64,000 nt of DNA from a virus (lineage: Duplodnaviria > Heunggongvirae > Uroviricota > Caudoviricetes). Shown piece by piece: positions 2,764 through 22,001 of this stretch. Under the pieces are notes generated by a model. The model worked only from the letters and a program-made list of their open reading frames with translations, was not told the origin of the DNA and made no database searches. Every line of letters begins with the position of its first letter. The first letter of the stretch is position 1. A program made the translations under genes and the position numbers. The stretch is taken from positions 23,109 through 87,108 of IMG/VR virus record IMGVR_UViG_2944808559_000001; one strand, 5' to 3'.

Positions 2764-3108
2764 CTACGGCTGTTCGAGGACCGCGACCGTCACCCCGGCG
2801 GGGTCGCTGTAGTTGATCCACACCTTGCCGTCCGGCCGCCGGTACGCGGCCGGCAGCGGCGGGATCAGCACGTCGCCGGTCGTGGCCGGGATCACGTACT
2901 CCCGGTCCTGGATGTCCTGGCCGTCGACCGTGCCGGGGATCTCGATCGTGACCGTCCTCGGCGCGGCGTTGGTGTTCTTGATGCGGATCTGCCGCCTGTC
3001 CGACCAGGTGAACATGTTGCCGTCCACGTTGGCCGGGTTCGGCAGCGCGGCCGTCAGGTTCAGGCCCGCGCGCGGCACGGGCGTGACGGTGAGGTCAGTC
3101 CTGGCCAT
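2764..3108 (-). CDS. hypothetical phage structural protein
   Basis: 114-aa ORF in the late operon with high GC3. Confidence 0.4.
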   Translation of the reverse strand: MARTDLTVTPVPRAGLNLTAALPNPANVDGNMFTWSDRRQIRIKNTNAAPRTVTIEIPGTVDGQDIQDREYVIPATTGDVLIPPLPAAYRRPDGKVWINYSDPAGVTVAVLEQP

Positions 3109-3523
3109 CGTCGCCTCCTTCCCCGAACTCCTCGATCAGGGCCTGCTTGGACAGGGCGGCCGCGTCCCGCGCGGGCATGCCGCGCTTGATCGCGTAGGCG
3201 ACCCACTCCTTCTTCGGCTCGTGCTCGGCCGGGCGGATGACTCCGGCGGCGACGTCGGCGAGGCCGGGACCGGCCTGCCCCTGCACCGGCCCGGGATCGG
3301 GCTGGTCGGGCGCACCGATGAGAATCCATACCTCCAGCGCGTCCAGGCGCGCCGACCGGTTCGGGTACTGCACGACCTGGCCCGTGTTGCTGTTCCTGTA
3401 CTGGTAGGTGGAGGCGACATCCGCGTGGATGCCCTCCACCCTGTCCAGCGCGCCCATCGCGTTGACGTTCTCCCGCGCCGTCAGGGCGCCCATGTGGTCG
3501 ACGGGAGTGCGCGGCCCCGGCAT
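3095..3523 (-). CDS. hypothetical phage structural protein
   Basis: Internal ATG of the 234-aa track ORF (MPGPRTPVDHMGALTARENV...), 142 aa. Its start overlaps the stop of the upstream gene by 1 nt. Confidence 0.4.
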   Translation of the reverse strand: MPGPRTPVDHMGALTARENVNAMGALDRVEGIHADVASTYQYRNSNTGQVVQYPNRSARLDALEVWILIGAPDQPDPGPVQGQAGPGLADVAAGVIRPAEHEPKKEWVAYAIKRGMPARDAAALSKQALIEEFGEGGDDGQD

Positions 3524-3876
3524 CAGAAGTTCGCGTCCTTCTCGATGTCGATCTGGATGGTCAGGTCGGTCGGGGTGCCGGCCACGGACACGACGGTCGC
3601 GGCGAGCGTGTCGCCCGCCTGCATCCGCCGGTTCGCCAGGGCCGCGAGCGACCCTGGCACCCACGTGCTCGCCGCGTTCACCGACAGGTCGCCGGTCAGC
3701 ACGGACGCGCCGTTCTTGGTCGCGTTGACGGCCGCGCCGGTGCCGCCGACGCGGTAGGCGCGCACGGCCATGACCCGGCACGGCACGGACGCGCGCCACA
3801 GCACGAACGACCCGGCCGCGATGTCGCCGCCCTTGAGTGTGATGGTCTTCTCGGTCAGACGAGGCTTGAACGCCAT
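3523..3876 (-). CDS. possible head decoration / DUF2190-like small capsid-associated protein
   Basis: Internal start MAFKPRLTEKTITLKGGDIAAGSF... (118 aa). RBS AAGGAGA sits 8 nt upstream. Directly downstream of the capsid gene and its hairpin. Confidence 0.4.
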   Translation of the reverse strand: MAFKPRLTEKTITLKGGDIAAGSFVLWRASVPCRVMAVRAYRVGGTGAAVNATKNGASVLTGDLSVNAASTWVPGSLAALANRRMQAGDTLAATVVSVAGTPTDLTIQIDIEKDANF

Positions 3877-3904
3877 CCCTGCTGTCTCCTTGTGTCGTTG
3901 AGGA

Positions 3905-3944
3905 CCAGCCGCCCCGCTAGCCGAACGGCTAGCGGGGCGGCTGG
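3905..3944 (-). terminator. strong stem-loop (18-bp perfect stem CCAGCCGCCCCGCTAGCC / GGCTAGCGGGGCGGCTGG, 4-nt loop) 3 nt after the major capsid stop
   Basis: Read directly from the sequence. No U-tract, which is common for actinomycete terminators. Its position after the highly expressed MCP suggests a terminator or attenuator. Confidence 0.5.
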
Positions 3945-3947
3945 TGG

Positions 3948-4862
3948 TTAGGCGTTGTCCACGTCCTTGACCAGCACGGCCCGGTTGGGGTCCAAGGTCT
4001 TCGTGCCGTAGAGGGTATCGATGGAGACCACGTCCTGCTTGAGGTCGATGTCGTAGTCCATCACCACCCGGAGCGAGAAGCCCTTGTAGTTCGCGACGAC
4101 GGCGTTGGCGGCACCCTGCGGCAGCACCAAAGGGCGAGTGACCAGGCAAAACGCCGTCCTATGGAAGGCGACGCCGACCTCGGACTTACTGTTGCCGGTC
4201 GTCTGCGGCGGCACCTTGATGTTCTGGGTGCTGAACGCGTCGAACCCGAACACGCGCCTGCCGAGCGACGCCTCGCGCAGGCCGTCGGTGTCACCGCGGA
4301 CGTCGAGCTGGTGGAACAGCGGGTCCGACAGCCAGTGGGCCTTCATCTGCGGGCCGATCACCACGCTGCGCTGACTGGGCGAGACGCTGCGCTCGTTGAG
4401 GACCCGGTCGGCGTCGATCATCGACTTCGGGGTGTCCCAGGTGTGGATGTTCGGCAGGCCGCCGTTACCGATCTCCTGGACGACGTCGTCGCGCAGAGCG
4501 AGCAGGTCCCTGTCGATCTTCTGGCTGATCGCCTCCATCGCAGGATTCAGCAGCTGCGTGGCGAAGTCCTGAATCTCCAGGGTCATCTCTTCGGCGGTCA
4601 CGGCAAACGAGACGTCAGCGAAGTGATTCAGCGTGACCGGGACCGCCGTCTCGGTCGCGTTCTGGATCTGGATGCCCTCGCTGCGGTCATACTCGTAGGC
4701 GTCGAACGTGGCCGGCTTGCGGACGTTGACGGTGTCGCCGACCTTACCGGCGAAGTCTTCGTCCAGGTCGCGGTGCACGAGCTGAGCCATGACGCAGGTC
4801 TCGTACAGGGTGGCGAGCGCCGCGCGGGCGATCACCTGCGGGGTGAGAAACGTGTTGGCCAT
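3948..4862 (-). CDS. major capsid protein (HK97-fold)
   Basis: 304 aa. RBS AAGGAGA is 8 nt upstream of the ATG. Preceded by a scaffold-like gene and followed by a hairpin. Sequence is MCP-like (ANYKGFSLRVVMDYDIDL...). Confidence 0.8.
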   Translation of the reverse strand: MANTFLTPQVIARAALATLYETCVMAQLVHRDLDEDFAGKVGDTVNVRKPATFDAYEYDRSEGIQIQNATETAVPVTLNHFADVSFAVTAEEMTLEIQDFATQLLNPAMEAISQKIDRDLLALRDDVVQEIGNGGLPNIHTWDTPKSMIDADRVLNERSVSPSQRSVVIGPQMKAHWLSDPLFHQLDVRGDTDGLREASLGRRVFGFDAFSTQNIKVPPQTTGNSKSEVGVAFHRTAFCLVTRPLVLPQGAANAVVANYKGFSLRVVMDYDIDLKQDVVSIDTLYGTKTLDPNRAVLVKDVDNA

Positions 4863-4874
4863 GCGGCCGTCTCC

Positions 4875-5714
4875 TTAGGAAGCGGGAGACTCCTTCGCGC
4901 CGCGGCGGCGCTTGCGGAAGTCATCCACGGTGAGCTGGTCATCGCCGGTGCGTCCGCCGGGCCCGCCGCCGAACTCCCCCCCGGACTTGGTGTGCGTCGC
5001 CGCCGGGGCGACCGCCTTGTACTTCGGGTTGTCCTCCACCGCCTTGGCGATGGTGGAGGTGATCGTCGCGGCGAACTCCTTGTCGTCGGGGTCGAGACCC
5101 GACACGTTCGCCAGGAACGAGCGGCTGTCGAGCAGCGCGTCAACGTCGGCGCCGGCCTTGACTGCCTGCCGCACCACAGCGAGTTCGACCTGGGTGCGGC
5201 GCAGCCGGTCAGCGGTCTGCTCGTTCTGCGTGGTGAGCGCTGCCTTGTCGCTGGTGAGCTGCTCGATCACCTGCGCCGGTTCGAGGGGCTTCTCCTCCTC
5301 CACGCCGAGCGCCTTAGCGATCTGCTGCGCCACCTCCTGACGGGCGGTGGCCACCAGCTCCTCGGCGGTGGGACCGTCCGGCTTGGCGTCACTCTGCGCC
5401 TTGAGCTCTTTGAGCTGGTTGCGGAACTCGGCAGCCTCGTTCCGGGTGTCCTTGATCAGCTTCTGCGCCCAGGACGGCAGATCGGCGACCTTGCGCGGGT
5501 CCGCGACCATCGGCTGCTCCGGCTCGGTGCCCGGCCCGCTGCTCGGCCCCGTGGGTGCGCCCGTGACCTCGGCTCCACCGCCGTCCGCAGGGGCGGGGGC
5601 GGGCTGGCCTTCGGGCGCGCCTTCAGAGCCGCCAGCGATCACGTAGATGGGGCGGCCGTCCTTACGGTTGCCGAGCAGCGCGCCAGGCGCGGTCGGCAGC
5701 GGGTGGTGCTTCAC
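4875..5714 (-). CDS. capsid scaffolding protein
   Basis: 279 aa, Ala/Glu/Gln-rich coiled-coil (KELKAQSDAK...LTTQNEQTADRLRRTQVEL). GTG start with RBS AGGAGGG. Lies between the MuF and capsid genes. Confidence 0.65.
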   Translation of the reverse strand: MKHHPLPTAPGALLGNRKDGRPIYVIAGGSEGAPEGQPAPAPADGGGAEVTGAPTGPSSGPGTEPEQPMVADPRKVADLPSWAQKLIKDTRNEAAEFRNQLKELKAQSDAKPDGPTAEELVATARQEVAQQIAKALGVEEEKPLEPAQVIEQLTSDKAALTTQNEQTADRLRRTQVELAVVRQAVKAGADVDALLDSRSFLANVSGLDPDDKEFAATITSTIAKAVEDNPKYKAVAPAATHTKSGGEFGGGPGGRTGDDQLTVDDFRKRRRGAKESPAS

Positions 5715-5809
5715 GATGGGCCCTCCTGGAGCCAGACATGACGAAGGCCCGCGCCTGGCGGGCCGTGGTGGAGAAAAGCGCAGGTCAGCCCCTCACAGGG
5801 GCGAGGGGG

Positions 5810-6949
5810 TCAGCGGGGCAGCCGCAGCCCCTTGTCCTTGGCCAGCGCGCGGGCGCGCGCCCGGTACTCGCGTACCTTCGCGTTCGCCTTCTGCTTGGCG
5901 TCCTTGTCGATCGCCGCCGCCGCGCGGCGTTCCCACTGCCGGGCCTGGCGTTGCAAGCGACGCACCTCCTGGGTGTCGCCGTACTCCGCAGCCACCGCGG
6001 GCTTGGGCGCCGGCCGGGTGACGCCGGGCAGGTACGCCGACAGCGAGTGCCTGCAGTTCGGGTGCAGCAGCCCCTCAAGACGGGCCTGCGCCACGGTGGC
6101 CGCGACCTGGACGGTGATCGGCTCGTTGGTGAGGACGTTCGTTGCCAGCCGCTCGCCCGCCGTCCCCGACTGGGTGAGGACCTTGCCTTCCCACGGGTCG
6201 CACAGGCTGCACGAGTACGGCGTGGTGGAGACGATCACCAGGTCCATTCCCGCGTCACGCAGGATCGCGAGGTGGCCGTCCACGGCCGCGCGGGCGGTCG
6301 CCGTCCGCATCGCCATGGCCACGTACGACTCCAAGTTCCACGTGCGGCCCGACGCGTCGGTGAAGCCGGTGATACCGCGTGCGAGGAGCCGGTCGAGCGC
6401 CTCCTGAGCCGCCAGACGGCGGGTCTGGCCTCCGATCAGCACGCGGCCCGCGGTTGCGGCGATCACCTGCCGGTAGATGTCCTCCACCACGCGCAGCGCG
6501 GACAGCTCCACGACGTCGAGCCTCTCGACCACCTGGCGGGCCAGCTCGGTCACGCCCTGCCCGGGGTTGATCAGCTGGGAGGAGCCGAGCTGGCGGGCGT
6601 CCCGCAGCGTCCGCTCCAGCCGCCGGCGGATCTTGGCGTCGTTCACGTCGCGGATGGCGGTGATGATGGCCTGGTCCATCCCTGCCGTCCACGCGCCGAC
6701 GACCGACTTGCGGGCCTTGGCCGCAGCCTCCAGCCGCTTGATGATGCGTTCGGCCTCGCGGCGGAGCTGCCCGATCTCGGCCAGCCGTTTGGCCTGCCAC
6801 GCGGTCGGGTCGTCGTCGGCCTGGTCGACGTCGTCAGCGACCCGGGCCGCGATCCGCTGCAGGAGCACCTGCTCCGCGTCGGCGTACAGGCGGGCGACCT
6901 CGCGGGCCTGCTCCAACGCGGAGGCGATCTCCTGCTCGGGCGTCGCCAT
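5810..6949 (-). CDS. phage head morphogenesis protein (SPP1 gp7 / Mu F family)
   Basis: 379 aa. Carries the MuF motifs GITGFTDASGRTWNLESYVAMAMRTA and HPNCRHS. Its start overlaps the portal stop. Confidence 0.8.
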   Translation of the reverse strand: MATPEQEIASALEQAREVARLYADAEQVLLQRIAARVADDVDQADDDPTAWQAKRLAEIGQLRREAERIIKRLEAAAKARKSVVGAWTAGMDQAIITAIRDVNDAKIRRRLERTLRDARQLGSSQLINPGQGVTELARQVVERLDVVELSALRVVEDIYRQVIAATAGRVLIGGQTRRLAAQEALDRLLARGITGFTDASGRTWNLESYVAMAMRTATARAAVDGHLAILRDAGMDLVIVSTTPYSCSLCDPWEGKVLTQSGTAGERLATNVLTNEPITVQVAATVAQARLEGLLHPNCRHSLSAYLPGVTRPAPKPAVAAEYGDTQEVRRLQRQARQWERRAAAAIDKDAKQKANAKVREYRARARALAKDKGLRLPR

Positions 6950-12372: not shown

Positions 12373-13653
12373 TCAGTAGACGGGTACGGGTTCCAGGAGT
12401 GGAGCCCATGCGGCCTGCGTGGTGTGCAAGCCGTAGCGGGCGGCGTCCATGGAGTGGTCGTCCAGTTTGACGGGGACGTCGTCGCCGCTGGCGGCCTTCT
12501 TGTCGTCCCAGCTGTAGGAGCCGACCTCGGACAGCCACCCTGCGCAGGAGCGGTGGATGCGCAGCTGGTCGGCGGCCAAGAGGTTGCTGACGGTGCGGAT
12601 GCCGTCCATCACGGAGTTGTCGCCCATGGTGGGCAGGAGCCCGTCCCAGTGCAACTGCGTGATGAACGAGGCAGCCGACGGGTCAACCACGACCCATTCC
12701 GGCTGCACGCCGTACGTGCCGGGCCCATGCGAGTTCGGGAAGGTGTGCAGCCAGTCCCTCAGCCGCTTGGAGTACTCGGCGTCGGTGAGCTGGCGGCGTT
12801 CGGCGCGCGAGTCGTAGCGCCACTCCCCCGCGAGGTAGACGCGCCGCTGCCGCTCGTCGTCGGGGACGGAGACGCCGACGAGGATCGCGGCGAACGGGTT
12901 GACCGTCCCATAGTCGACGCCGAGCGAGATCCAGCGCTCCATCATCGGCAGCCGGTCGACCACGTGCTTGTCGGGGTCGAAGCTGTCGAAGATCATGCCC
13001 TCGGCCATGCACCACTCACCGAGCACGTAGCGCCGGTACCAGAGCCCGGAGTACTCCGCCTTCAGGTTGGAGACGTAGGCCGGGTCCAACGACGGGTTGT
13101 CGTCGAGCATGAAGTGCCAGTACTTCAGGTCCAGCTCACCGGCGCGGAGGATGAACCGCTTGCGCAACCAGTGGCCGGGCGCGTCGGGGTTCGTCGTGCA
13201 GAAGATCATCGAGCCGGGCACGCTGCACCGGGCGAGGAGCTGGTCCCAGAACGTCTCGGGGATCAGCGTGGCCTCGTCGACGTACGCCCCGGCACACGTC
13301 ATGCCCCGGAGCCTCGACTCGGCGCGGATGTCGTTCGCCGAGACGATCTCGATCCGCCGGCCGAGCACGTTCGCGGTGGGCGCGCCGCGGTTGTAGAAGA
13401 TCCGCCGCGAGACGGGGCCGGTCAACGCCGGGTCCATCAACGGCTCGAAGATGTTCCTGCTGATGGTGTCGTTCGTTTTCCCGACCACGACCAGGCTGCC
13501 GCCGCGCGGTGCGGTGGCCACGTACATCAGCCAGCGCAGCAGCGACGCGATCGTCTTCCCGCTGCGGACGGCGCCCGACCAGATGTTGATGCGGGCGGTC
13601 GCCTCGGCGATGGACTTGGCCTGCTTCGGGGACAGGGTGACAACGCCGGTCAC
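12373..13653 (-). CDS. terL: terminase large subunit
   Basis: Walker A GAVRSGKT, Walker B AYVDEATLIP and a C-terminal nuclease-like region. GTG start in a GTGA overlap with the terS stop. The upstream arginine-rich part of the 509-aa track ORF looks like an artefact. Confidence 0.85.
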   Translation of the reverse strand: MTGVVTLSPKQAKSIAEATARINIWSGAVRSGKTIASLLRWLMYVATAPRGGSLVVVGKTNDTISRNIFEPLMDPALTGPVSRRIFYNRGAPTANVLGRRIEIVSANDIRAESRLRGMTCAGAYVDEATLIPETFWDQLLARCSVPGSMIFCTTNPDAPGHWLRKRFILRAGELDLKYWHFMLDDNPSLDPAYVSNLKAEYSGLWYRRYVLGEWCMAEGMIFDSFDPDKHVVDRLPMMERWISLGVDYGTVNPFAAILVGVSVPDDERQRRVYLAGEWRYDSRAERRQLTDAEYSKRLRDWLHTFPNSHGPGTYGVQPEWVVVDPSAASFITQLHWDGLLPTMGDNSVMDGIRTVSNLLAADQLRIHRSCAGWLSEVGSYSWDDKKAASGDDVPVKLDDHSMDAARYGLHTTQAAWAPLLEPVPVY

Positions 13654-14144
13654 CGCACCACCTCGACCGCCTCCACCACCTCGGTGTCGTCGAGGTCGAT
13701 GTCGGCGGGGGCGGCCGGGAGCGCAACCTGGCCGTTGGTCGCCTGGATGACCTGGAACAGGTTGCCGAGCAGGGAGACGACGTCGGAGTTCTCGGCGCCG
13801 TTGCGGTTGATGAGGTCCAGGCCCAGCAGGGTGCAGCGGCGGGCGATCAGCCGTTCGACACCTTCGACCGCCTTCACGTCGCCGCCGCACGCCTTGGACC
13901 ACAGGCTGGCCATCATGCGGTCGAGCCGGTCGATCTCGATCTGCAGCAGCTGTTCGCTGGACTCCTGCTGCGCCCTGGAGGCCATCTGCAGGGCACGGGT
14001 GACGTCCTTGGAGGCGGCGGCCAGGCTCCCGTAGCCGAGTTTGTCAGCGATCGTCCGATACGGGACACCGGCGAGTCGCATTTGCACGGCCTTTGTCCGA
14101 CGCTCTGCAATAACGACCTGACGCGCTTTGTTGGGACGGCCCAT
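13650..14144 (-). CDS. terS: terminase small subunit (HTH, sigma-70 region-4-like)
   Basis: Internal ATG MGRPNKARQVVIAERRTKAVQMRLAGVPYRTIADKLGY... gives 164 aa, directly upstream of terL. Confidence 0.6.
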   Translation of the reverse strand: MGRPNKARQVVIAERRTKAVQMRLAGVPYRTIADKLGYGSLAAASKDVTRALQMASRAQQESSEQLLQIEIDRLDRMMASLWSKACGGDVKAVEGVERLIARRCTLLGLDLINRNGAENSDVVSLLGNLFQVIQATNGQVALPAAPADIDLDDTEVVEAVEVVR

Positions 14145-14219
14145 GAGGGGAACCCCCGAATGAATCGATGTGACCACGCACACAGTTCGTGGTTGGGATT
14201 TATGAGTTAATCTGCGAAA

Positions 14220-14726
14220 ATGCGACCAATAAAAATGATCACCATTCAGCAACCCTGGGCCGCGCTCATCGTCGCCGGGATCAAAGACATCGAGAACCGC
14301 ACCTGGACGACGGCCTACCAGGGACCACTCCTCATCCAGGCCGGGATCAAGATCGACCGCCGCGGGTTGCGACGGCTCGACGAGCTCGGCCTGGAGCTCG
14401 ACGCGCCGCTGCACCGCGGCGTGATCCTCGGCTCCGTCCACCTCGGCGAGATCACCCGCTCCAGCGCATCGCCTTGGGCACGGCCCTACGCGCAGCACTG
14501 GAAGCTGTCCGACCCGCAGCCCGTTGTCCGCCTGCTGGAGGCTCGGGGCCAACAGGGCCGCCTCTTCGATCCCCCTCCTGACTGGAGGCGCGCGTTCACC
14601 GAGCACGACGCCGGCACAACACGCCTGTCACGGGTGCGGGACGTGCCGGCCGACGAGGTCGCCCCCAGGTTCAGGGAGAAGGTGACCCCTGAGGCGGCGT
14701 TGCTGGCCGCCCTGAACGGGGGGTGA
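14220..14726 (+). CDS. ASCH domain protein (PUA-like)
   Basis: MITIQQPWAALIVAGIKDIENRTW is the ASCH signature. AT-rich 5' end. Divergent from terS. An alternative start is at 14235. Confidence 0.65.
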   Translation: MRPIKMITIQQPWAALIVAGIKDIENRTWTTAYQGPLLIQAGIKIDRRGLRRLDELGLELDAPLHRGVILGSVHLGEITRSSASPWARPYAQHWKLSDPQPVVRLLEARGQQGRLFDPPPDWRRAFTEHDAGTTRLSRVRDVPADEVAPRFREKVTPEAALLAALNGG

Positions 14727-15801
14727 CGGGTGCCACGTACTCGAACGAGACCACCCCGAGCCGCCTCGGGTCGAGCGACTGCTCGTGCATCCAGGCGTGC
14801 TTGCTGCTGGTGCCGAGCGTGCGATCCTGGCGCTGCATCCGCCAGCGCGGGCTGCGCGCCCGGTAGGCGTTCAGCGCCGGGTGAGCGGACACGGCACGCA
14901 GCCGGTAGCCACGCTCATACAGGTACTGCCCCATCCACTCGGTCATCCGGCCGCCGAGCGACAACCCCTGATAGTCCGGCAGCACGACCGTGCGATGCGC
15001 CATTTTCAGGTTCCTCGTGCGAGGGTGCTGGAAATGGCGGTAGCTCGTGAAAGCCGCCAATTCGCCATTCACGTACCCGGCGAAACACTGCGCGCCGCGA
15101 TGCAATTCGACGGTCAAATAGTGATGGCGGCTAAACACCTTCCAGAGGGAGCGGTCAGCCTCGTGGATGTCGAGCCGGAGCGGCGGCCGGGGTTGAACCG
15201 ACCTCCAGCTGAACGAGGCCGCGGCGACGTCGTACACCCAGTCCGGCTGCAGCCAGTCGAGCACGTCATAGTGGCAGGTCACGGCCACGAGCTGCCGGTC
15301 GCGGCGACGTACCGCCTTCTGCACCGCGTGCGAGGCGACCTTCGCCACCTGCCTGTCCACGACCGACGTGAACTCATCGATGACGACCAGGCCGTCACGG
15401 TCAGCCAGCGCCCGGGCCAGCCCGGCGCGGAACGCCTCCCCGTTCGACAGCGTGCTGAAAGGCCGCATCCACGCCGGCGGCGAGCTCAGGCCGACCGCGC
15501 CGAGCAGCGCGACGACGTCCTTGACGCTCATGCCCTTCGGGAAGTCGTCGACCAGCGCCCGGTCTGTCCACTCCTGAGCGCCGACGAGGGCCTCCGGCCA
15601 CAGCTCGCGCGCGATCGTGGACTTGCCCGCTCCGGACGGGCCGACGAGCAGGCCGACGTTCCACGGCCGCTCCTCGACGGGCATCTCCACGGACCAGGAG
15701 GTGGTCAGCTTCTCCTCGACGGGCACGTCGAACAGGCCCTGCAGTTGCAGGACTCGCGCGCTCCGCTTGACGGGAGACGACAAGGTGATCTCAGCGCGCA
15801 C
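14671..15801 (-). CDS. ABC-type ATPase domain fused to a C-terminal GNAT acetyltransferase-like domain
   Basis: Walker A GPSGAGKST, signature-like LSNGEAFRAGLARAL, Walker B LVVIDEFTSVVD and an H-loop TCHYD. The C-terminal YQGLSLGGRMTEWM matches GNAT motif A. Confidence 0.65.
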   Translation of the reverse strand: MRAEITLSSPVKRSARVLQLQGLFDVPVEEKLTTSWSVEMPVEERPWNVGLLVGPSGAGKSTIARELWPEALVGAQEWTDRALVDDFPKGMSVKDVVALLGAVGLSSPPAWMRPFSTLSNGEAFRAGLARALADRDGLVVIDEFTSVVDRQVAKVASHAVQKAVRRRDRQLVAVTCHYDVLDWLQPDWVYDVAAASFSWRSVQPRPPLRLDIHEADRSLWKVFSRHHYLTVELHRGAQCFAGYVNGELAAFTSYRHFQHPRTRNLKMAHRTVVLPDYQGLSLGGRMTEWMGQYLYERGYRLRAVSAHPALNAYRARSPRWRMQRQDRTLGTSSKHAWMHEQSLDPRRLGVVSFEYVAPVTPRSGRPATPPQGSPSP

Positions 15802-15816
15802 TCTGCCCCCTCGCCA

Positions 15817-16443
15817 TCACATGAGTGCGCGGACCTGCCAGCCCTCGTCCGCCAGGCGCTCGAGGAGGCGGGTCTGCTCGGTCTCGTTGTCGCAGGTGAC
15901 GATGATGCCCCACACCTCGGGGCGGACGTCCTCGTCGGCGTCGCCGGGCTCGGGCAGCTCCTCGTCGTGGTCGCCCGCGCCTTCGGCGGCGATCGCGTCG
16001 GCGAGGTCGGCCAGGTCGTCATCGGTGTAACCGGCCGCGGCGAGCAGGTCGGGGTCGGCGTCGCGGACGTCGGCGAGGACCTCGGCGAGCATCCGGTCTT
16101 CCCAGCCGCCTTTCTCGGTGGTGCGGTTGTTCGCGACCAGGTACGCCTCGGCGTCCGCGTCCGAACGGGAGGACCAGCCGCGCACGATCGGCACCAGCCA
16201 GGTGCCGTCGTCGTCGATCAGGATCCCCTCGGGCGGGGACGCCTTGTCGGCGGCCATCGCCTCCAGAACCTGCAGGCGGCCGTGGCCGACGACCAGGCGT
16301 CCGGTCCGCTCGTCGAGCTCGCCGGCGACGATCGCGCCGAACGCCTCGATCGAGGCGCGGATGGCGGGCAGGTCGTGTTCCTTCGGGTTGCGGACGGCGC
16401 GCGGGATCTCGTGCAGCCGCATGTGCTCGATCCGGCGCATCAA
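15817..16443 (-). CDS. ParB N-terminal (ParB/Srx nuclease-like) domain protein
   Basis: 208 aa with ...NPKEHDLPAIRASIEAFGAIVAG...VVGHGRLQVLEA. ATGA overlap with the upstream gene. Confidence 0.55.
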   Translation of the reverse strand: MMRRIEHMRLHEIPRAVRNPKEHDLPAIRASIEAFGAIVAGELDERTGRLVVGHGRLQVLEAMAADKASPPEGILIDDDGTWLVPIVRGWSSRSDADAEAYLVANNRTTEKGGWEDRMLAEVLADVRDADPDLLAAAGYTDDDLADLADAIAAEGAGDHDEELPEPGDADEDVRPEVWGIIVTCDNETEQTRLLERLADEGWQVRALM

Positions 16444-17471
16444 CTCTCCCTGTTCTTGGGGCGGTAGCCGTACCGCTGTCGCTCGTGGCTGAGCTCACGG
16501 GTGATGAGGGCGCAGGCGAGCACGTCCCAGCACTGGGCGTCCACGGCCTCGTCGGGCACGCGCACGGATGAGCCCATGATGCGGTTCCGGCCGCCCGCCT
16601 TGGTGGGGATACCGCCGTTCGGGGCGTCCCACTCCACGGACCAGTGGTACTTCGCGGCGCGGTTGAGCCGGGGACGGCCGAGCCGTACCCGCTCCAGCTT
16701 CAGCTGCACCTGGTGGGTGTCGCCTTCAGGCATCTGCACCCAGCCGAGCACCGGCCCGGCGGCGTCCTCGTAGCTGTACCGCTTCGGACCGAACAGCGCC
16801 TGGACCAGGTCGAGGCTGATGCGGCCGTGCATCCACCACGGGTCCGTGCTGGCCCACTCGTGTTCGCGGGCCCACAGCTGCCAGCGGAGCGCCCAGTCGT
16901 CGATCGACACGTTGATCACGCGGGAGGTGTAGCCCTCGGGGATGAGTTGGCGTTGCAGCCAAGTGCCGAACCCCTGTGCGTGCAGGTACAGGGCGCCGAA
17001 CGGCCATACCCGCAGGTGCGCCGCCACGGTGTGCTCCGCGCCGGCCGCGCCGATGGAGATCTCGGCGCCGAACACGCCGAACGTCCGGCCGAGCACCAGC
17101 TGGCCGCCGAGCGTCCCGGTGGGGTGGTCCGGCCACGGGCCTGGGCTCCACGTGGTGGAGCCGAGCTTCCGCGTCCCCTCGGTGTAGCCCGGGGGGTACA
17201 CGCGGCCGGTGTACGGCTCGCCGACGTCGTAGTGCGCCGCGGGGAGGCTGCCTTGCGGTTCGGGCCGGACGCCGCAGCGGTCGCAGGTCACCCAGCGGGC
17301 CGCGTCAAGGCCGGGCTTGCGCGGGCCGTACCCGTCGACCACCGGCTTGTGGCCGCGCAGGCGGCACCACAGCCTGAGCCGGGGCACGTCGTTCCACCAG
17401 AATCCGCGGTCGAGGAGCACGCCGCGGCGGCGGCCGTCCCGCTTGAGGTAGTCGGTCGAGTGCCACCACAT
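16440..17471 (-). CDS. hypothetical protein (343 aa, Trp-rich)
   Basis: ORF track. Operonic with the ParB-like gene. Confidence 0.5.
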   Translation of the reverse strand: MWWHSTDYLKRDGRRRGVLLDRGFWWNDVPRLRLWCRLRGHKPVVDGYGPRKPGLDAARWVTCDRCGVRPEPQGSLPAAHYDVGEPYTGRVYPPGYTEGTRKLGSTTWSPGPWPDHPTGTLGGQLVLGRTFGVFGAEISIGAAGAEHTVAAHLRVWPFGALYLHAQGFGTWLQRQLIPEGYTSRVINVSIDDWALRWQLWAREHEWASTDPWWMHGRISLDLVQALFGPKRYSYEDAAGPVLGWVQMPEGDTHQVQLKLERVRLGRPRLNRAAKYHWSVEWDAPNGGIPTKAGGRNRIMGSSVRVPDEAVDAQCWDVLACALITRELSHERQRYGYRPKNRES

Positions 17472-17473
17472 GG

Positions 17474-17710
17474 TCAGCGGCCCTCCGGGGGACGGCCGCC
17501 CGACCAGACGATGGTGGCGGAGTCGAAGCCGTCGGGGTCGCCGGTGTGGAGCCGCCGGACGGTGGGCTGCTGGACGACCTGGTCAGGCGCGTCCTCTTCG
17601 ACGGCGCGTAGCGCGTACGCGTGGGTGTTCGCTGCCACGAGGGTGGTGTGCGGCTTGGCCGAGTTGTCTTGCCATTCGACGGCGTAGAGGTTGCCGGGCC
17701 TACGACCCAT
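17474..17710 (-). CDS. hypothetical small protein (78 aa)
   Basis: RBS GGGAGAG sits 5 nt upstream of the ATG. Confidence 0.45.
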   Translation of the reverse strand: MGRRPGNLYAVEWQDNSAKPHTTLVAANTHAYALRAVEEDAPDQVVQQPTVRRLHTGDPDGFDSATIVWSGGRPPEGR

Positions 17711-17819
17711 GAGGCTCTCCCGAGGGGTGAGGGGTGCGAACGGAGAGGTAGGCCCCGGCCTGGCGCGTCACCCGATCCCCCAGGCAGGGGCGGCCAGGCG
17801 CGGGGAGCGTGGGGGCGGG

Positions 17820-18146
17820 TCAGCCGCGGGGCGGCCAGCTCCAGGTGCCGGGCCGCACGCCTTCGACGCAGGAGGTGGCCCAGTAGGTGTCGTTGCCGTC
17901 CAGGTAGACCTGGAGGTTGACGTAGGCGGCGCCGAACGTGCGCACGATCATGGCCGGGAAGACGTCGCCCGTCATGACGCGGTTGCCGACGTGCGCGACG
18001 TGGCCGTCCGCGCCGGCCTGGCCGGGCAGGGCCGGGGTGCGGCCGCGCTGGAACGCCTCGAAGTCGTCGCGCCGCCGGTTGATGGCGTCGGCGTCGGCGT
18101 CGCTGAGCTGGTAGTGGACGATACGGCCGATGGACGGCTGGCTCAT
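17820..18146 (-). CDS. hypothetical protein (108 aa from internal ATG MSQPSIGRIVHYQ)
   Basis: RBS GGAAGG sits 7 nt upstream. Confidence 0.45.
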   Translation of the reverse strand: MSQPSIGRIVHYQLSDADADAINRRRDDFEAFQRGRTPALPGQAGADGHVAHVGNRVMTGDVFPAMIVRTFGAAYVNLQVYLDGNDTYWATSCVEGVRPGTWSWPPRG

Positions 18147-18544
18147 CAGGGGCCTTCCGGTGCTGGCGGCGGGCATGCGAAAGGCCCCAGGAGACGGGGA
18201 CGCTCCAGGGGCCTAGCTCGTGATCACGTCTGAGACAAGATCATTCCCGGGGGGTTCCCGGGTGTACCGGACGCGGGAGATCGTGCGGGAGAGACGCTCT
18301 CAGCGCTGCGGATGAATCCCCCGACCGGGGGAAAACCGTGCGTACCGACACGAAACCCAGACTGATCATGAGGGTACACACGGTTGTCAAGCCGAGGCAA
18401 GATCCTGCAACCACAAGTGCGCGCTCACCTACCGCAAACCACCGGAATCGCCTGTGGGAACGGCAATGCAGCGTTTAGCGTTGGTTCAAATGACGCCGGG
18501 GCCAGGTCGCCCCAACTCACCCACGCCAAGGGGAGCCCAGAGGA

Positions 18545-19576
18545 ATGGACAACGCGATTCGAGTCACTCTTGACGATGGGGTCGATGTGATCGTCGAACC
18601 GCCAAAGCCGGATTCTTGCAGCAGCAGTGATCTTGGGAGAGCTGCGACGAAGTCGCTGATCAGGGCAATTAAGCTCTGGCGGCTGAAGTCGAACTTCGAA
18701 AGCGAGCCGCTCTTGAATCCGGCTTTCGAGCTCTGGGCCGCTCTCGCCATGGCCCGAATGGAACGCGACCACGGGCCAGAGATCGAGCTGGAGTTTGCGG
18801 CGGTACATGACGCCTCAGCCGATGGCTGGGTGGTTCGTCGTGACTCCGCCCGCGCTGGCGAGTTCCGCATCGTCCTCGTCGTGCACGCTATGCACTCCGC
18901 ATCCGCTTCCGCTCCGCTGACGGTATCCGCAGAAGTGGCCGCCCAGTCGATGATCGAGCAAAACATGGACGCTCTGCTCAATCCCACCCGACAGCCGAAC
19001 GAGGACCTGCCGATTATGGTCTACGTCGGCGGCGACGCCGACGAAGCCGCCCTGTCCCCCATCGAAGAGGCCATCAAGGGCGTGCTCGACTCCCACGAGC
19101 TCCGAATCGAGACCTCCCAGGGGCCATTCCTCGGCTCCATCGCGAAGTGGTTCAAGGCTGTTGGACGCGGCGCGCAGTCCTTGGCCGACAGTGAAATCGG
19201 CCATGACCTCGCCGCCGAAGCGCAACGTGCCATCCAGCTCCGGGCCGTGGACCTCGAACAAGCCAAGGTGGACGATGCCAAAGCGACGGCAGCCGCGAAG
19301 CTTATCGAAGCCGCCGAGCCGTACTCCGTCGTGACCATCCAGGCCGGGTCCATGCTGCTGCTGAAGGCACACGACATGCTGGTAGTCCGAGACCTGACGC
19401 CGCGGGAGATGCTCTACGTACGGAGAAACTCCCGGCTGATCACGGACCCGAAGGCACTCCTCGCGGGCCTCGACTCCTGTGAACTCCCCACGTCCATCGA
19501 CTCCTGCGAGCTGCCCAGCACGTTGGCCGCCCAGCGCCGCTCGGAGCTGACCATGGGGTTTGAGGACGTCGAGTAA
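18545..19576 (+). CDS. hypothetical protein (343 aa), lower-GC opposite-strand moron next to HNH and integrase
   Basis: GC roughly 55-60% against ~70% background. It is the only plus-strand gene in this stretch. No recognisable motifs. C-terminal DSCELPTS duplication. Confidence 0.6.
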   Translation: MDNAIRVTLDDGVDVIVEPPKPDSCSSSDLGRAATKSLIRAIKLWRLKSNFESEPLLNPAFELWAALAMARMERDHGPEIELEFAAVHDASADGWVVRRDSARAGEFRIVLVVHAMHSASASAPLTVSAEVAAQSMIEQNMDALLNPTRQPNEDLPIMVYVGGDADEAALSPIEEAIKGVLDSHELRIETSQGPFLGSIAKWFKAVGRGAQSLADSEIGHDLAAEAQRAIQLRAVDLEQAKVDDAKATAAAKLIEAAEPYSVVTIQAGSMLLLKAHDMLVVRDLTPREMLYVRRNSRLITDPKALLAGLDSCELPTSIDSCELPSTLAAQRRSELTMGFEDVE

Positions 19577-19627: not shown

Positions 19628-20239
19628 CTACTCGATGGCCGCGGCGACCAGGTCGGACGGGTCGTCCTCCAGCCGCCACGGCGTGGTGGACACGCTCAGC
19701 TCCGGGAACCCGAAGTGTTCAATCTCAATGCCGAGGATCGCGGTCGGCGGACGCTCCCGGTACCGGTCGAACACGCCAACGCCGCCCGGCTCCTTGGAGT
19801 TGCAGCTCATGCACAGCAGCCCGCGGACCAGATCGGTAGCGTGGTCGTGGTCCCACACCTGCCGCGCATGCCGGCCGCCGCAGATGGCGCACCGCTCGGC
19901 CTGCCACTCGACGAGCACATCCACTGGGTCGGCGACCCGGTCAACTTCCGGGGCTTGCCAGCTCCAGCAGGCAGGCTCCGCCGCATGCAACCACTGCTCA
20001 ATCTTGTCGCGCTCCGCGTCGAGTTCAGCGTCCAGTCGGGCTGCCTCGTCGCGCTCCTCTGCGGTCCTGTGGGCCGGGCACGCCGGGTACCGCGACTGAA
20101 TCCGAGCACGGCAGGGCTTGCCCGTGGCTTTGGTCGGCCGCCCGCACTCCACCGTGCTCTCTCCCATGATCAACGCGTACGCGGACTGGAGCGTGTGCCC
20201 GTCCGGCAGGGACCGGCGCGCCGGTTCGAAGCCGCTCAC
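19628..20239 (-). CDS. HNH endonuclease (endonuclease VII-like)
   Basis: CAICGG...VWDHDHATDLVRGLLCMSCNS. Overlaps the integrase stop by 4 nt. Confidence 0.7.
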   Translation of the reverse strand: MSGFEPARRSLPDGHTLQSAYALIMGESTVECGRPTKATGKPCRARIQSRYPACPAHRTAEERDEAARLDAELDAERDKIEQWLHAAEPACWSWQAPEVDRVADPVDVLVEWQAERCAICGGRHARQVWDHDHATDLVRGLLCMSCNSKEPGGVGVFDRYRERPPTAILGIEIEHFGFPELSVSTTPWRLEDDPSDLVAAAIE

Positions 20240-21282
20240 TGCGTCCCGCCCGCGTACTGCGCCTCACCGCGGGCGAACTCCGCGCCCAGGTCGTAGGCGG
20301 GTGACCTGTCGAGCGTGTCGCGGGCGCGGTCGTAGCGGCGGGTCGTGCGGGGGTCGGCGTGCCCGAGGAGGTCCTGCACGACGTGCAGCGGGTACTTCTC
20401 CAGCAGGTGCGTGGCGATGGAGTGGCGTAGCGAGTGCGGGGAGAGCGAGTCCGCGTGCGGGATCCCGGCCTTCTTCGCGACGCGGCGCAGCTGGCGGAAG
20501 ATGGACGGCTGATCCAGCGGCTTGCCGGTGTCGGTGCGGAACAGCGGGCCGTCGTCGTTGCCGCGCTCCTCGAGGTAGCGGTCGAGGGCGACGGAAGCGT
20601 ACGGCGGGATGATGAACCGCTTCGTGTTCTCCTCGCCGCCGCCCTTCACCGGGAGGTCGATCACCCGGTGGCCCCGGTCGTGGCCGAGCGCGGACCGCTT
20701 GACTCGGATGACGCCGCCGACTCGGCACGCGGTCACCACGAGCAGGCACAGCAGCGCGTACGTGCGGGCCGTCTCATAGGTGTGGGCGTGGGCGAGCATG
20801 CGGTCCAGCTCATCCTTGGACAGGCCGCGCGTCTTGGACACGTCGGCGGTCTTCGGCCGGTCCATCTTGGTGAACGGGTTGCGCACGGCGTGGCCGGCGC
20901 GGACGAGGTAGTCGTACCAGGACGAGGCGGCGGCCAGGCGGCGCGAGCGGGTCGAGGCGGCCAGGCCGCAGTCTCGGAGTGCGGCGCCGTACAGGTCGGC
21001 TGCGGACGGTGGCACGTCGGCGGGATCCAGCCCGCGACCTTGCAGGTAGGTGATCCACCAGCCGAGGTCTTGGACGTAGCCGCGCTTCGTCGCTTCGGAG
21101 GTGCGTTTCTCGCTGGACAGCCATGCTCCGGTGGCCGCCAGCGCGTCGATGGTCATGCCGCCTCGGCGCATCAGGTCGGCGAGCTCATGTGTGGTGCGTG
21201 CGGGGGCCGTTCCCCGGAGGGTGGGGCTGGTCATGGGGGCGATCGCGGTCCCGGGGGGGATTTGTTGATCTTGAGGGATCAT
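20236..21282 (-). CDS. int: tyrosine recombinase / phage integrase
   Basis: 348 aa. Has an R...HSLRHS...LLGHADPRTTRRY catalytic tail and an N-terminal SAM-like domain. Confidence 0.85.
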   Translation of the reverse strand: MIPQDQQIPPGTAIAPMTSPTLRGTAPARTTHELADLMRRGGMTIDALAATGAWLSSEKRTSEATKRGYVQDLGWWITYLQGRGLDPADVPPSAADLYGAALRDCGLAASTRSRRLAAASSWYDYLVRAGHAVRNPFTKMDRPKTADVSKTRGLSKDELDRMLAHAHTYETARTYALLCLLVVTACRVGGVIRVKRSALGHDRGHRVIDLPVKGGGEENTKRFIIPPYASVALDRYLEERGNDDGPLFRTDTGKPLDQPSIFRQLRRVAKKAGIPHADSLSPHSLRHSIATHLLEKYPLHVVQDLLGHADPRTTRRYDRARDTLDRSPAYDLGAEFARGEAQYAGGTQ

Positions 21283-21287
21283 GCAAA

Positions 21288-21325
21288 TGATCTTACATGA
21301 TAAGAGACATTGTCATGTAAGATCA
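21288..21325. promoter_or_regulatory. 13-bp perfect inverted repeat TGATCTTACATGA-N12-TCATGTAAGATCA, AT-rich, 6 nt upstream of the int start codon
   Basis: Read directly. Lies in the divergent int / membrane-protein intergenic region. Confidence 0.45.
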
Positions 21326-21368
21326 TTAATTAGGGAACGGTTCGATCACACACTCATCGCCCACCCCC

Positions 21369-22001
21369 ATGCAGCGTTCCAATAGCCCCATGGACTCTCT
21401 CGAACCCGGACCTCTCTGGCGCCGACTGCGTGACCAAGAGGAGCGCAGCATCATTGCCCGCCAACTCCGAGACGCGTCGCCCACGATGGTGCTGGCTGGC
21501 ATCTTCACCAGCGTCGCCGCAGCGATCGGCATGGGGCTTCTGCTACAGCATGTCCCCGCCGTACGACCGGTCCTTGGCAGGTGGGTCATCATCGGAGTCC
21601 TTGTGACCTCCGTGATCGCAGCTTGCTGGCTGGCCTATTGGAGACACAAGAAAACAATCCGCGAGCTGGGCTTCTCCCCTGCAGACCAGCCTGCTCGCCT
21701 CCGGCATCAAATTTCACGCGTCAACAGCGCTATGACCGAAGCCGCTGAGCTGATGGACAACCTCCAGCGCGATCTGGCGGCGCAGCAAGCCGCCCGCGAA
21801 ACTCTTATCGCCGAGGCCGAACATCAGCAGCGACTGCTCGAAGTCAACAAAGTAGAGGCCGAGAAGATCCGGCTGATCATCGTTGGCGAAACCAAGCGGA
21901 GCCTCCGCACCCAACGCTTCCGTGAGTGGGGCTTCTTCCTTGCTGGGCTCGCTTTAGCCGTCCCCATCAATATCCTTTCCGACCTCATCGGACCGAAGTA
22001 G
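21369..22001 (+). CDS. membrane protein with two N-terminal TM helices, a central coiled-coil and a C-terminal TM
   Basis: 210 aa with hydrophobic segments MVLAGIFTSVAAAIGMGLLL, WVIIGVLVTSVIAACWLAYW and WGFFLAGLALAVPINIL. Plus strand, lower GC, no obvious RBS and possibly leaderless. Confidence 0.5.
   Translation: MQRSNSPMDSLEPGPLWRRLRDQEERSIIARQLRDASPTMVLAGIFTSVAAAIGMGLLLQHVPAVRPVLGRWVIIGVLVTSVIAACWLAYWRHKKTIRELGFSPADQPARLRHQISRVNSAMTEAAELMDNLQRDLAAQQAARETLIAEAEHQQRLLEVNKVEAEKIRLIIVGETKRSLRTQRFREWGFFLAGLALAVPINILSDLIGPK

Follow-up and report, generated by a model that had tools for sequence, protein, structure and literature searches.

Among the described systems closest to the one considered here, the GNAT Mom of phage Mu acylates the N6 of adenine in double-stranded DNA, a position at which acyl groups are reported to be unstable (PMC13219725), and the TmcA/NAT10 enzymes are a precedent for an ATPase-coupled GNAT that acetylates an aromatic exocyclic amine (cited in PMC13219725). 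GKER-type ASCH proteins remove the acetyl group from ac4C in tRNA (bioRxiv 10.64898/2026.02.27.708502), and their K/E dyad is needed for N4-acetylcytidine deacetylation (bioRxiv 10.64898/2026.02.27.708502; PMC6972931). Experiments showed a phage ParB homologue to be an activator of a DNA-modifying dioxygenase on double-stranded DNA (PMC13229309), and both the 5mYOX176/ParB176 thymine dioxygenases and the ParB-N::DNA methyltransferase fusions use a ParB-CTPase fold without the canonical HTH as cognate partner (PMC13229309; PMC12704722).

The window that we analyzed, a stretch of 64,000 nucleotides from a Nonomuraea prophage, contains one example of a gene pair composed of a ParB-like gene and an ABC-ATPase::GNAT fusion (ABC::GNAT). 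The fusion (376 aa; 14671..15801, minus strand) starts with a GTG preceded by the ribosome-binding site GAGGGGG and comprises an ABC nucleotide-binding domain (NBD) at residues ~1-200 (nt 15202-15801) and a GNAT domain at residues ~205-330 (nt 14812-15189). Upstream of it on the same strand are the ParB/Srx-like partner (208 aa; 15817..16443), the Trp-rich orphan p343 (343 aa; 16440..17471) with a conserved C36/H41/C63/C66 cluster, the small orphan p78 (78 aa; 17474..17710; from the ORF list), whose stop overlaps the p343 start by 4 nt, and p118 (17820..18176), a member of the phrog_19300 family (E 8.6e-36) that is 118 aa long, or 108 aa from an internal ATG at 18146. The initial annotation had described these five minus-strand ORFs, all of which are present, as one translationally coupled operon; four of the genes are indeed tightly coupled, while the first, p118, is set off from the next by a gap of 109 nt. 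It had also placed the operon immediately upstream of the small terminase subunit gene, terS (13650..14145, minus strand; phrog_645-type match, E 1e-25; ATG at 14145 read from the sequence), and had overlooked an ASCH-domain gene on the plus strand (168 aa; 14220..14726; Pfam PF04266; phrog_3193, E 5e-31) that intervenes between the fusion and terS. The ASCH gene converges on the fusion gene, their 3' ends overlapping by 56 nt, and is divergent from terS; 12 non-redundant relatives share this convergent layout. The large terminase subunit gene, terL (12373..13653, minus strand; Pfam Terminase_6N; phrog_2, E 8e-51; reading frame checked), probably starts at the GTG at 13653, overlapping the terS stop, and terS homologues adjoin terL in related loci.

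The ParB-like gene and ABC::GNAT are a very widespread phage gene pair and their pairing is near-obligate: a ParB-like or mini-domain ORF lies directly upstream of ABC::GNAT, on the same strand and with a median gap of -4 nt, in 128 of the 141 non-redundant loci. The idea that the five genes form one functional unit had to be given up, since only these two are kept across the loci. Profile searches gave no family match for p78, which had no homologue in 82 related loci; p118 was found in only three related loci, and p118, p78 and p343 recur only among close Streptosporangiales relatives. On the sequence comparisons, the conserved unit is the ParB-like protein plus ABC::GNAT only, and the other three genes are lineage-specific and outside the module. 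The architecture of the fusion, which had been thought unusual, is common: the 376-aa protein matches phrog_11143 over its full length (E 2e-101), more than 5,253 homologues are found at E <= 1e-10, and the family forms 669 clusters of 50% identity at E <= 1e-30. At least 10 independent 50%-identity clusters contain single-chain ParB-mini-ABC-GNAT fusions, in which a mini-domain lies between ParB and ABC. A match of the fusion to a characterized family, named in the initial annotation as refuting, did not occur, and our literature search found no paper on the ABC::GNAT family. The pair is also found in lytic phages, including the T4-like Aeromonas phage PX29 and the Leptospira phages LE3 and LE4; for the PX29 fusion no ParB or mini-domain partner was detectable.

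The proposed assignment of the fusion to an ABC NBD and a GNAT domain held up. Its scores of 32.1 bits for ABC_tran and 24.5 bits for Acetyltransf_1 are both above the Pfam cutoffs (25 and 20.7 bits, respectively), and the confident predicted structure contains both folds, the GNAT-like region modeling as a GNAT fold, so that the second refuting outcome named in the initial annotation did not occur either. In homologues of 32-85% identity the Walker A, the LSxGE signature, the Walker B (D142-E143), the D-loop and the H-loop (H177) are invariant or nearly so, and so is the GNAT motif A (R270..Q278-G279-x-G281). The protein belongs to the ABC ATPase superfamily (PF00005-type NBD) by its Walker A, signature, Walker B Glu, D-loop and H-loop, and to the GNAT superfamily by its fold and its motif A (Q/R-x-x-G-x-G/A), the acyl-CoA pyrophosphate-binding loop; judged by these motifs, both catalytic centers are intact. 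The segment between Walker A and the signature, where a Q-loop glutamine and a full helical subdomain would be expected, is only ~60 residues long, with a conserved D85 and no invariant Gln. Inteins interrupt the ABC P-loop region in some homologues, and intein insertion is typical of functionally important phage ATPases. The closest ABC matches are transporter-type and enzyme-accessory NBDs and not the DNA-binding Rad50, SMC, UvrA or MutS, and the fusion has no evident DNA-binding domain. Its names in databases often suggest an ABC transporter, which we rejected: no permease/transmembrane or substrate-binding protein gene recurs among the neighbors in 162 loci, and the recurrent neighbors are ParB-like, terminase, ASCH, formyltransferase and PanD genes. 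In having no permease gene nearby the fusion resembles soluble non-transporter ABC ATPases, and the best structural and sequence matches for its N-terminal domain are MCR activation component A2, PhnK/PhnL and SufC, although these have neither a fused GNAT nor a ParB-like partner. The closest structures of the GNAT domain are generic small-molecule or protein N-acetyltransferases.

The ParB N-domain (ParB/Srx-like) call for the partner was likewise borne out by PHROG and PDB profile matches, alignments and HMM domain mapping of short stand-alone versions. The 208-aa protein matches PHROG 620/723/498 at E ~1e-21, and its family profile matches Noc (7ng0; 4e-16), ParB/Spo0J (1e-13 to 1e-10), and also ParB nuclease and Srx, in the PDB. 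An N-terminal ParB-CTPase-type domain with the motifs N19-P-K, G53-H-G-R56 and N-N-R is followed by an acidic linker; the box II/III-like motifs of the ParB/Srx superfamily, G53-H-x-R and (A)DN, are present, and Pfam finds no ParB HTH or C-terminal dimerization domain. A canonical partition ParB was rejected, the C-terminus being a family-specific mini-domain and the adjoining gene being ABC::GNAT, not parA. This mini-domain (~45 aa in the window's partner, residues ~165-208, nt 15820-15951; conserved C184, E187, Q190 and G201) is, at ~50 aa, the constant part of the partner across loci, and in Mu-like phages the partner is a stand-alone mini-domain of 50-60 aa without the ParB domain. From this pattern the partner appears to dock to ABC::GNAT through the mini-domain. 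The ParB domain matches the ParB part of phage DNA methyltransferase fusions (phrog_498, 6e-22; PADLOC MTase_II). Like ParB176 and the ParB-N::MTase fusions, the window's protein has a ParB-CTPase fold without canonical HTH; unlike them and 5mYOX176, its enzyme is an ABC::GNAT and its docking mini-domain can exist without ParB.

Mom and ABC::GNAT share a GNAT catalytic domain, a phage origin and a late-expressed position. However, Mom uses Gly-tRNA whereas ABC::GNAT has the canonical acyl-CoA motif A, and only ABC::GNAT has an N-terminal ABC ATPase and a mini-domain partner. Membership in the Mom family, with its HTH-like insertion and catalytic R111/S124, was rejected for lack of sequence homology: the ABC::GNAT family profile aligned to Mu Mom with an hhalign probability of 0.3%, and Mom is missing from the PDB profile matches of the GNAT domain. 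In 13 non-redundant Mu-like loci, including that of Burkholderia phiE255, a gene for a Com zinc-ribbon protein (PF10122, E 1e-16) extends into the start of the cassette just as com of Mu extends into mom, and with this zinc-finger gene upstream and a formyltransferase downstream the cassette of this lineage occupies the com-mom position of Mu. Microbacterium phage Antuna gp48, which matches the same ParB-like HMM (E 1e-40) and is without the mini-domain, shows translational coupling with a Mom-like GNAT and adjoins a tRNA-Gly, the type of co-substrate used by Mom. By analogy, we propose that the module is a functional counterpart, and not a homologue, of Mom.

The accessory genes differ by lineage, being Com plus formyltransferase, PanD plus CoA-transferase or, in the window's version, ASCH; among the 141 loci we counted Formyl_trans_N in 22, PanD in 13, CoA_transf_3 in 10 and ASCH in 27. 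These lineage-specific enzymes all do acyl or amine chemistry, and the Formyl_trans_N neighbors keep the catalytic HPSxLP and D motifs. Each of ASCH, formyltransferase and PanD occurs in no more than 10-20% of loci, which counts against a DNA-acylation reading. The window's ASCH protein scores 22.8 in Pfam (cutoff 21.2) and has an intact GxKxxExR octapeptide (G20-I-K22-D-I-E25-N-R27), the K/E dyad of which is kept in all 30 neighboring ASCH proteins aligned; it has the 'GKER' motif of N4-acylcytidine amidohydrolases and is predicted to have their activity.

The gene neighborhoods, the Com position and the ParB-like/Mom-like coupling in Antuna suggest DNA-base acylation. Our main reading, to which we assign a probability of roughly 45%, is that the ParB-like protein and ABC::GNAT would acylate nucleic-acid bases in an ATP-driven, ParB-assisted reaction, the bases being most likely those of phage DNA before packaging. 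The comparative evidence supports the earlier suggestion that the phage carries a DNA-targeting or modification system. Counting against this reading are a GNAT domain with no specific similarity to Mom or TmcA/NAT10, an ABC domain unlike those of DNA-binding ABC proteins, the absence of an evident DNA-binding domain from the fusion, the PX29 fusion with no partner detected, and the reported instability of acyl groups on adenine N6. RNA might instead be the target, because the known ASCH substrates are RNA and nucleosides; the ATPase::GNAT would then acetylate cytidines in tRNA, rRNA or mRNA as TmcA/NAT10 do, tuning translation or evading anticodon-nuclease or RNA-targeting defenses, and ASCH would be the ac4C eraser. 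We consider this unlikely, although the GKER-type enzymes act on tRNA and their motif is intact in every neighboring ASCH, the only characterized ATPase-plus-GNAT enzymes (TmcA/NAT10) act on RNA, and NAT10 is among the weak GNAT profile matches. TmcA/NAT10 and ABC::GNAT both fuse a P-loop ATPase to an acetyl-CoA-type GNAT, and the ABC::GNAT family is genomically associated with ASCH, the family of ac4C erasers, but the ATPase of TmcA/NAT10 is helicase-type and that of the fusion is ABC-type with a ParB-like partner. Membership in TmcA/NAT10 was rejected, since Pfam finds only ABC_tran and GNAT in the fusion and no DUF1726, helicase or tRNA-binding domain, and the similarity to NAT10 (E 0.036) is confined to motif A and not significant. 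An RNA target also fits poorly with a near-obligate ParB-fold partner of the type fused to DNA methyltransferases, with the ParB-like homologue that partners a Mom-like DNA acyltransferase in Antuna, and with the com-mom position in Mu-like phages.

The pair might instead be a packaging or late-gene accessory, with a ParB-like protein that binds close to pac/cos or the terminase and an ABC::GNAT that acetylates, in an ATP-gated manner, a phage or host protein such as the terminase, the portal, a nucleoid protein or a defense protein. In at least 59 of the 141 loci a same-strand terL follows within 4 kb downstream, the closest GNAT structures include the protein N-terminal acetyltransferases RimI, Naa50 and Ard1, and soluble ABC ATPases, of which MCR activation A2, PhnK/L and SufC are among the matches, often drive protein complexes. 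Yet the Mu-like cassette comes after the tail-fiber genes, under Com and away from the terminase, the cassettes of PX29 and of the Gordonia/Rhodococcus phage Jace do not adjoin the terminase, and ParB-MTase genes that fill the same pre-terminase slot are not packaging factors. PanD, CoA-transferase, formyltransferase and the ASCH amidohydrolase fit the chemistry of a small-adduct pathway better than protein acetylation, and we regard a packaging role as quite improbable.

We do not read the module as a defense system. The analogy drawn earlier with OLD, Gabija and PARIS failed: these ABC/OLD-type anti-phage systems were rejected on curated models that matched only at generic ABC motifs, the locus has no Toprim, OLD or other effector nuclease, and the pair occurs in strictly lytic phages, among late genes in the pre-terminase region. 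With PADLOC the fusion matched mad3 (7.6e-12, over residues 105-192 only), mad8, AbiLi and an ATPase-Toprim model (E 0.03), and the ParB-like partner matched nothing beyond the MTase-associated ParB region. A counter-defense or defense enzyme that acylates a small molecule, be it a nucleotide-derived immune signal, an antibiotic-like compound or a metabolite, would agree with the common use of GNATs on small molecules, with top GNAT fold matches of that type, with the weak matches to the mad3, mad8 and AbiLi ATPases, and with the 'acr candidate' genes annotated beside the pair in Porphyromonas phages. The same generic PADLOC matches, the missing effector nuclease, the lytic carriers and a ParB-like partner that shows no sign of nuclease function and can be reduced to a 50-aa mini-domain in many phages make it very improbable.

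For base acylation of phage DNA, we infer the substrate, acyl donor and biological role as follows. The ParB-like N-domain would engage or open phage DNA, maybe with nucleotide regulation as in other ParB-fold proteins, and ATP binding would bring two ABC domains together as the canonical head-to-tail dimer, the cycle of which would present a base to the GNAT site. The GNAT would move an acyl group from acyl-CoA to the exocyclic amine of the base, the donor being acetyl-CoA in the window's minimal version and possibly beta-alanyl-CoA where PanD and CoA-transferase are present; in the Mu-like versions a formyltransferase may then tailor the adduct. The modification would be added late, when the DNA has been replicated and is about to be packaged, and would protect it from host restriction. 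ASCH could be an eraser or proof-reader that, for example, removes collateral RNA or nucleotide acylation or neutralizes leaky activity in the lysogen.

A more specific proposal, which we hold only tentatively and think rather doubtful, is that the pair uses ATP to write N-acyl bases, for example N4-acetyl-deoxycytidine, into phage genomic DNA and that the convergent ASCH erases them; in the lineages with PanD/CoA-transferase or formyltransferase the adducts may be, for example, beta-alanyl or formyl-aminoacyl. If true, a writer/eraser pair for DNA base acetylation would for the first time be defined enzymatically, and DNA hypermodification by GNATs would have a second, independent route, one that extends over many bacterial phyla and archaea.

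The region surrounding the cassette has a G+C content of about 70%. Because p343, one of three lineage-specific proteins encoded upstream, has a fully identical (100%) counterpart in Nonomuraea maritima and the ABC::GNAT fusion shares 94% identity with a protein of Nonomuraea sp. CA-141351, the window is assigned to a Nonomuraea prophage. All five minus-strand ORFs described in the initial annotation as a pre-terminase block are present, namely those for p118 (17820-18176), p78 (17474-17710), p343 (16440-17471), the 208-aa ParB-like protein (15817-16443) and the 376-aa fusion (14671-15801). The block is real but not contiguous with terS, since a plus-strand ASCH-domain gene (14220-14726; Pfam ASCH; phrog_3193, E 5e-31), its GKER octapeptide intact, intervenes, convergent with the fusion gene and overlapping its 3' end by 56 nt. 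Nor are all five genes coupled, as a 109-nt gap separates the first from the next. Beyond the ASCH gene the minus strand carries terS (13650-14145), terL (12373 to about 13653) and, in turn, genes for an SPP1-type portal, a minor capsid protein and a P22-type coat protein. The 74 relatively AT-rich bases between the ASCH and terS starts suggest a divergent promoter region; a promoter and terminator consensus scan of 13900-18700 gave no matches, such a scan being uninformative for an actinomycete. Upstream of the block lie a plus-strand 343-aa ORF without a family match (18545-19576) and an Endonuclease VII gene (19628-20239) that overlaps the tyrosine integrase gene (20236-21282). The latter two are only about 6 kb from terS, and no repressor or replication genes are recognisable in that interval; the prophage may be defective or have an unusual gene organisation.

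Both domain calls made for the fusion hold, with ABC_tran and Acetyltransf_1 above their Pfam thresholds. In alignments of homologues down to about 32% identity, the Walker A motif (G54..K60), the ABC signature (L118-S119-x-G121-E122), Walker B (D142-E143), the D-loop (S146-x-V148-D149-R150), the H-loop (C176-H177-Y178-D179) and GNAT motif A (R270-x-V272..P275..Q278-G279-x-G281) are all invariant or nearly so. Some homologues carry large insertions inside the ABC domain, either a Hint and LAGLIDADG intein at the Walker A region (P0196) or inserts of 340-430 aa near Walker B (P0139 and P0251). The architecture had been regarded as unrecognised; it is in fact common, as phrog_11143 ("unknown function") matches the fusion over its full length (E 2e-101) and homologues number more than 5,253 at E<=1e-10, with 669 clusters at 50% identity at E<=1e-30. 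Matches occur in 87 deposited phage genomes, including Gordonia, Arthrobacter, Lactococcus P335, Oenococcus, Porphyromonas, Leptospira, Pasteurella, Burkholderia Mu-like and T4-like Aeromonas phages and Streptococcus pyogenes prophages, and prophages of many phyla carry it as well, their hosts including Actinomycetota, Planctomycetota, Proteobacteria, Bacillota, Bacteroidota, Chlamydiia and archaea. The window holds one member of a large, uncharacterised family, whose proteins are as a rule wrongly called "ABC transporter" or "GNAT acetyltransferase" (database labels include "ABC transporter", "ATP-binding cassette-like protein" and "GNAT family N-acetyltransferase"). Our literature search returned context papers only and no description of the architecture or the gene pair; a paper on Leptospira phages does no more than list the two ORFs. 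In Streptococcus prophage 315.4 (4986-6055 of the fetched locus) and the related Javan and phiNIH1.1 prophages, the ABC::GNAT frame is broken into two or three parts, labelled 'ABC transporter ATP-binding protein' and a small hypothetical protein, which suggests a frameshifted or decaying copy; its neighbours, the ParB, ASCH, terS-like and terL genes, are intact.

Database searches place the fusion in no characterised family. Searched against PDB sequences, the whole protein matched ABC transporter NBDs alone; a GNAT-only profile gave weak generic GNAT matches (best E 0.006) and no family assignment, its NAT10 match (E 0.036) covering motif A only. NCBIfam gave only generic, sub-threshold ABC matches and no curated family that fits. 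PADLOC likewise offered no fitting family and assigned no defence system, leaving unsupported the analogy drawn with anti-phage systems that pair ABC ATPases with nucleases; a defence or small-molecule role now seems very improbable to us.

Viral (79) and genomic (80) loci were fetched and their six-frame ORFs scanned with iteratively built HMMs, and counts were made over 141 non-redundant loci. A ParB-like ORF lies directly upstream of the fusion on the same strand in 128 of the 141 (median distance from its stop to the fusion start, -4 nt) and is absent from only 6 of the 123 loci with sufficient upstream DNA. This pair is what remains of the five-gene operon first proposed, the other three genes falling outside the conserved unit. 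The ParB-domain profile matches the N-domains of Noc, ParB and Spo0J at 4e-16 to 4e-10, as well as a ParB nuclease and sulfiredoxin, so that by profile comparison the partner has a genuine ParB domain, as originally called. The protein also matches phage DNA methyltransferase fusions in their ParB region (phrog_498; PADLOC MTase_II). Its C-terminal mini-domain (residues ~165-208 in the window, with conserved C184, E187, Q190 and G201) can stand alone: in 17 loci, all Mu-like and proteobacterial, the upstream ORF has merely 50-60 aa and matches only HMM positions ~144-193. At least 10 independent cluster representatives join ParB, mini-domain, ABC and GNAT, in that order, in a single chain. We infer that the mini-domain is a docking element and the ParB domain a modular add-on. 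Long ORFs upstream of some homologues yielded no added domains, such as MTase, when checked and are probably high-GC over-extensions. In the T4-like Aeromonas phage PX29, the ABC::GNAT protein (gp083; 5368-6615 of the fetched locus) has no detectable ParB or mini-domain neighbour, and an NPPY-motif N6-adenine DNA methyltransferase is encoded two genes downstream.

Accessory patterns were obtained by clustering neighbouring ORFs, followed by Pfam scans and counting. A Formyl_trans_N gene, with visible catalytic HPSxLP and D-x-G-x-D-T-G motifs, overlaps the fusion stop in 22 non-redundant loci (e.g. phiE255 gp30). In 13 of the Mu-like formyltransferase loci the mini-domain gene is overlapped at its start by a gene for a Com zinc-ribbon protein (PF10122, E about 1e-16, four conserved Cys), an arrangement that parallels the com-mom overlap at the end of the Mu late region. 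The phiE255 copy is an unannotated plus-strand ORF between gp27 and gp28 (record 21236-21541; 4524-4829 of the fetched locus; PF10122 E 6e-16) that overlaps gp28, a stand-alone mini-domain protein. In actinophages such as Jace, PanD follows the fusion (13 loci; E 1e-29) and, with its G-S self-cleavage site present, is judged from its residues to be a true aspartate decarboxylase; a CoA-transferase-III-like protein is encoded downstream in 10 loci. IMG/VR contigs L010-L018 (e.g. L010 878-4138) have two tandem ABC::GNAT paralogues flanking PanD and CoA-transferase-like genes, after which come genes for a Terminase_4 small subunit and terL. The PanD/CoA-transferase and formyltransferase genes suggest that donors or tailoring steps differ with lineage.

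An ASCH gene is nearby in 27 non-redundant loci, and in 12 of these it is convergent and immediately downstream of the fusion, as in the window. All 30 neighbouring ASCH proteins compared keep the octapeptide GxKxxExR, whose Lys and Glu form the catalytic dyad of GKER-type ac4C amidohydrolases (bioRxiv 10.64898/2026.02.27.708502; YqfB background in PMC6972931). These genes suggest N4-acylcytosine as product or by-product. TmcA/NAT10 (cited in PMC13219725), which acetylates cytosine N4, offers a precedent for the ATP need. RNA acetylation is a reading to be weighed, and we consider it unlikely, with the ParB module pointing towards DNA in the comparisons below. The position of the cassette bears on another reading, that of a packaging accessory which acylates protein: a large terminase gene lies no more than 4 kb downstream of the fusion in at least 59 loci, but is not so placed in Mu-like, Jace or T4-like contexts, and we hold this reading to be slightly less probable still. 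The cassette as a substitute for terS was rejected, since recognisable terS genes come after it both in the window and at many loci.

An independent link to DNA acylation came from Microbacterium phage Antuna, recovered by tblastn with Mu Mom. There gp48, which carries the annotation of a ParB-like nuclease domain protein, is translationally coupled to the gene for a Mom-like GNAT, gp49, which it overlaps. Antuna gp48 matches the partner ParB HMM at E 1e-40 over positions 12-150 and has a different C-terminal tail in place of the mini-domain, so that one ParB-like module is paired, through different C-terminal adaptors, with either a Mom-family DNA acyltransferase or the ABC::GNAT. A tRNA-Gly(ccc) gene lies immediately downstream of the Antuna pair (gp48-gp50; 2969-4228 of the fetched locus), and Mom draws on Gly-tRNAGly for the glycine that it adds to N6 of adenine in dsDNA (PMC13219725). 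Pairing of a ParB module with a DNA acyltransferase fits two recent reports. In one, a DNA thymine dioxygenase is shown to be activated by a phage ParB homologue, and this specifically on dsDNA (PMC13229309); in the other, ParB-CTPase folds of phages are shown to occur typically in fusions with DNA methyltransferases or with PUA/ASCH-like domains (PMC12704722).

The gene context points towards a new variant of nucleic-acid modification in phages, and DNA modification, already raised in the initial annotation, is the best-supported reading. Most economically, the pair would be an ATP-driven, ParB-assisted acyltransferase acting on nucleic-acid bases, DNA likeliest, to which we give a probability of roughly 45%, its substrate, donor and role being what we infer. 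With its canonical motif A, the enzyme would take the acyl group from an acyl-CoA. Functionally the module would be analogous to Mom without being homologous to it; hhalign of Mu Mom against the family profile found no relationship (probability 0.3%). Base acylation is weakened by the generic GNAT domain, by an ABC domain of transporter/accessory type and not of DNA-binding type, and by the partial penetrance of each accessory gene.

Hypermodification of phage DNA yields new nucleic-acid chemistry, mechanisms for evading restriction and CRISPR, and enzymes for biotechnology. To our knowledge Mom is the sole GNAT-based DNA modification understood, its mechanism reportedly solved only in 2026, and we know of no writer identified for N4-acetyl-dC. 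The family described here has thousands of members, its Bacillota carriers including S. pyogenes and dairy Lactococcus prophages, and several cultivable phages carry the pair, so that the question is directly testable. If DNA is acylated, the pair would represent a new ATP-dependent, ParB-assisted modification pathway, another enzymatic partner for ParB-fold proteins and a candidate writer for N4-acetyl-dC. Even if the target is RNA or protein, an obligate ParB-adaptor/ABC/GNAT machine conserved beside terminase genes would be new phage biology.
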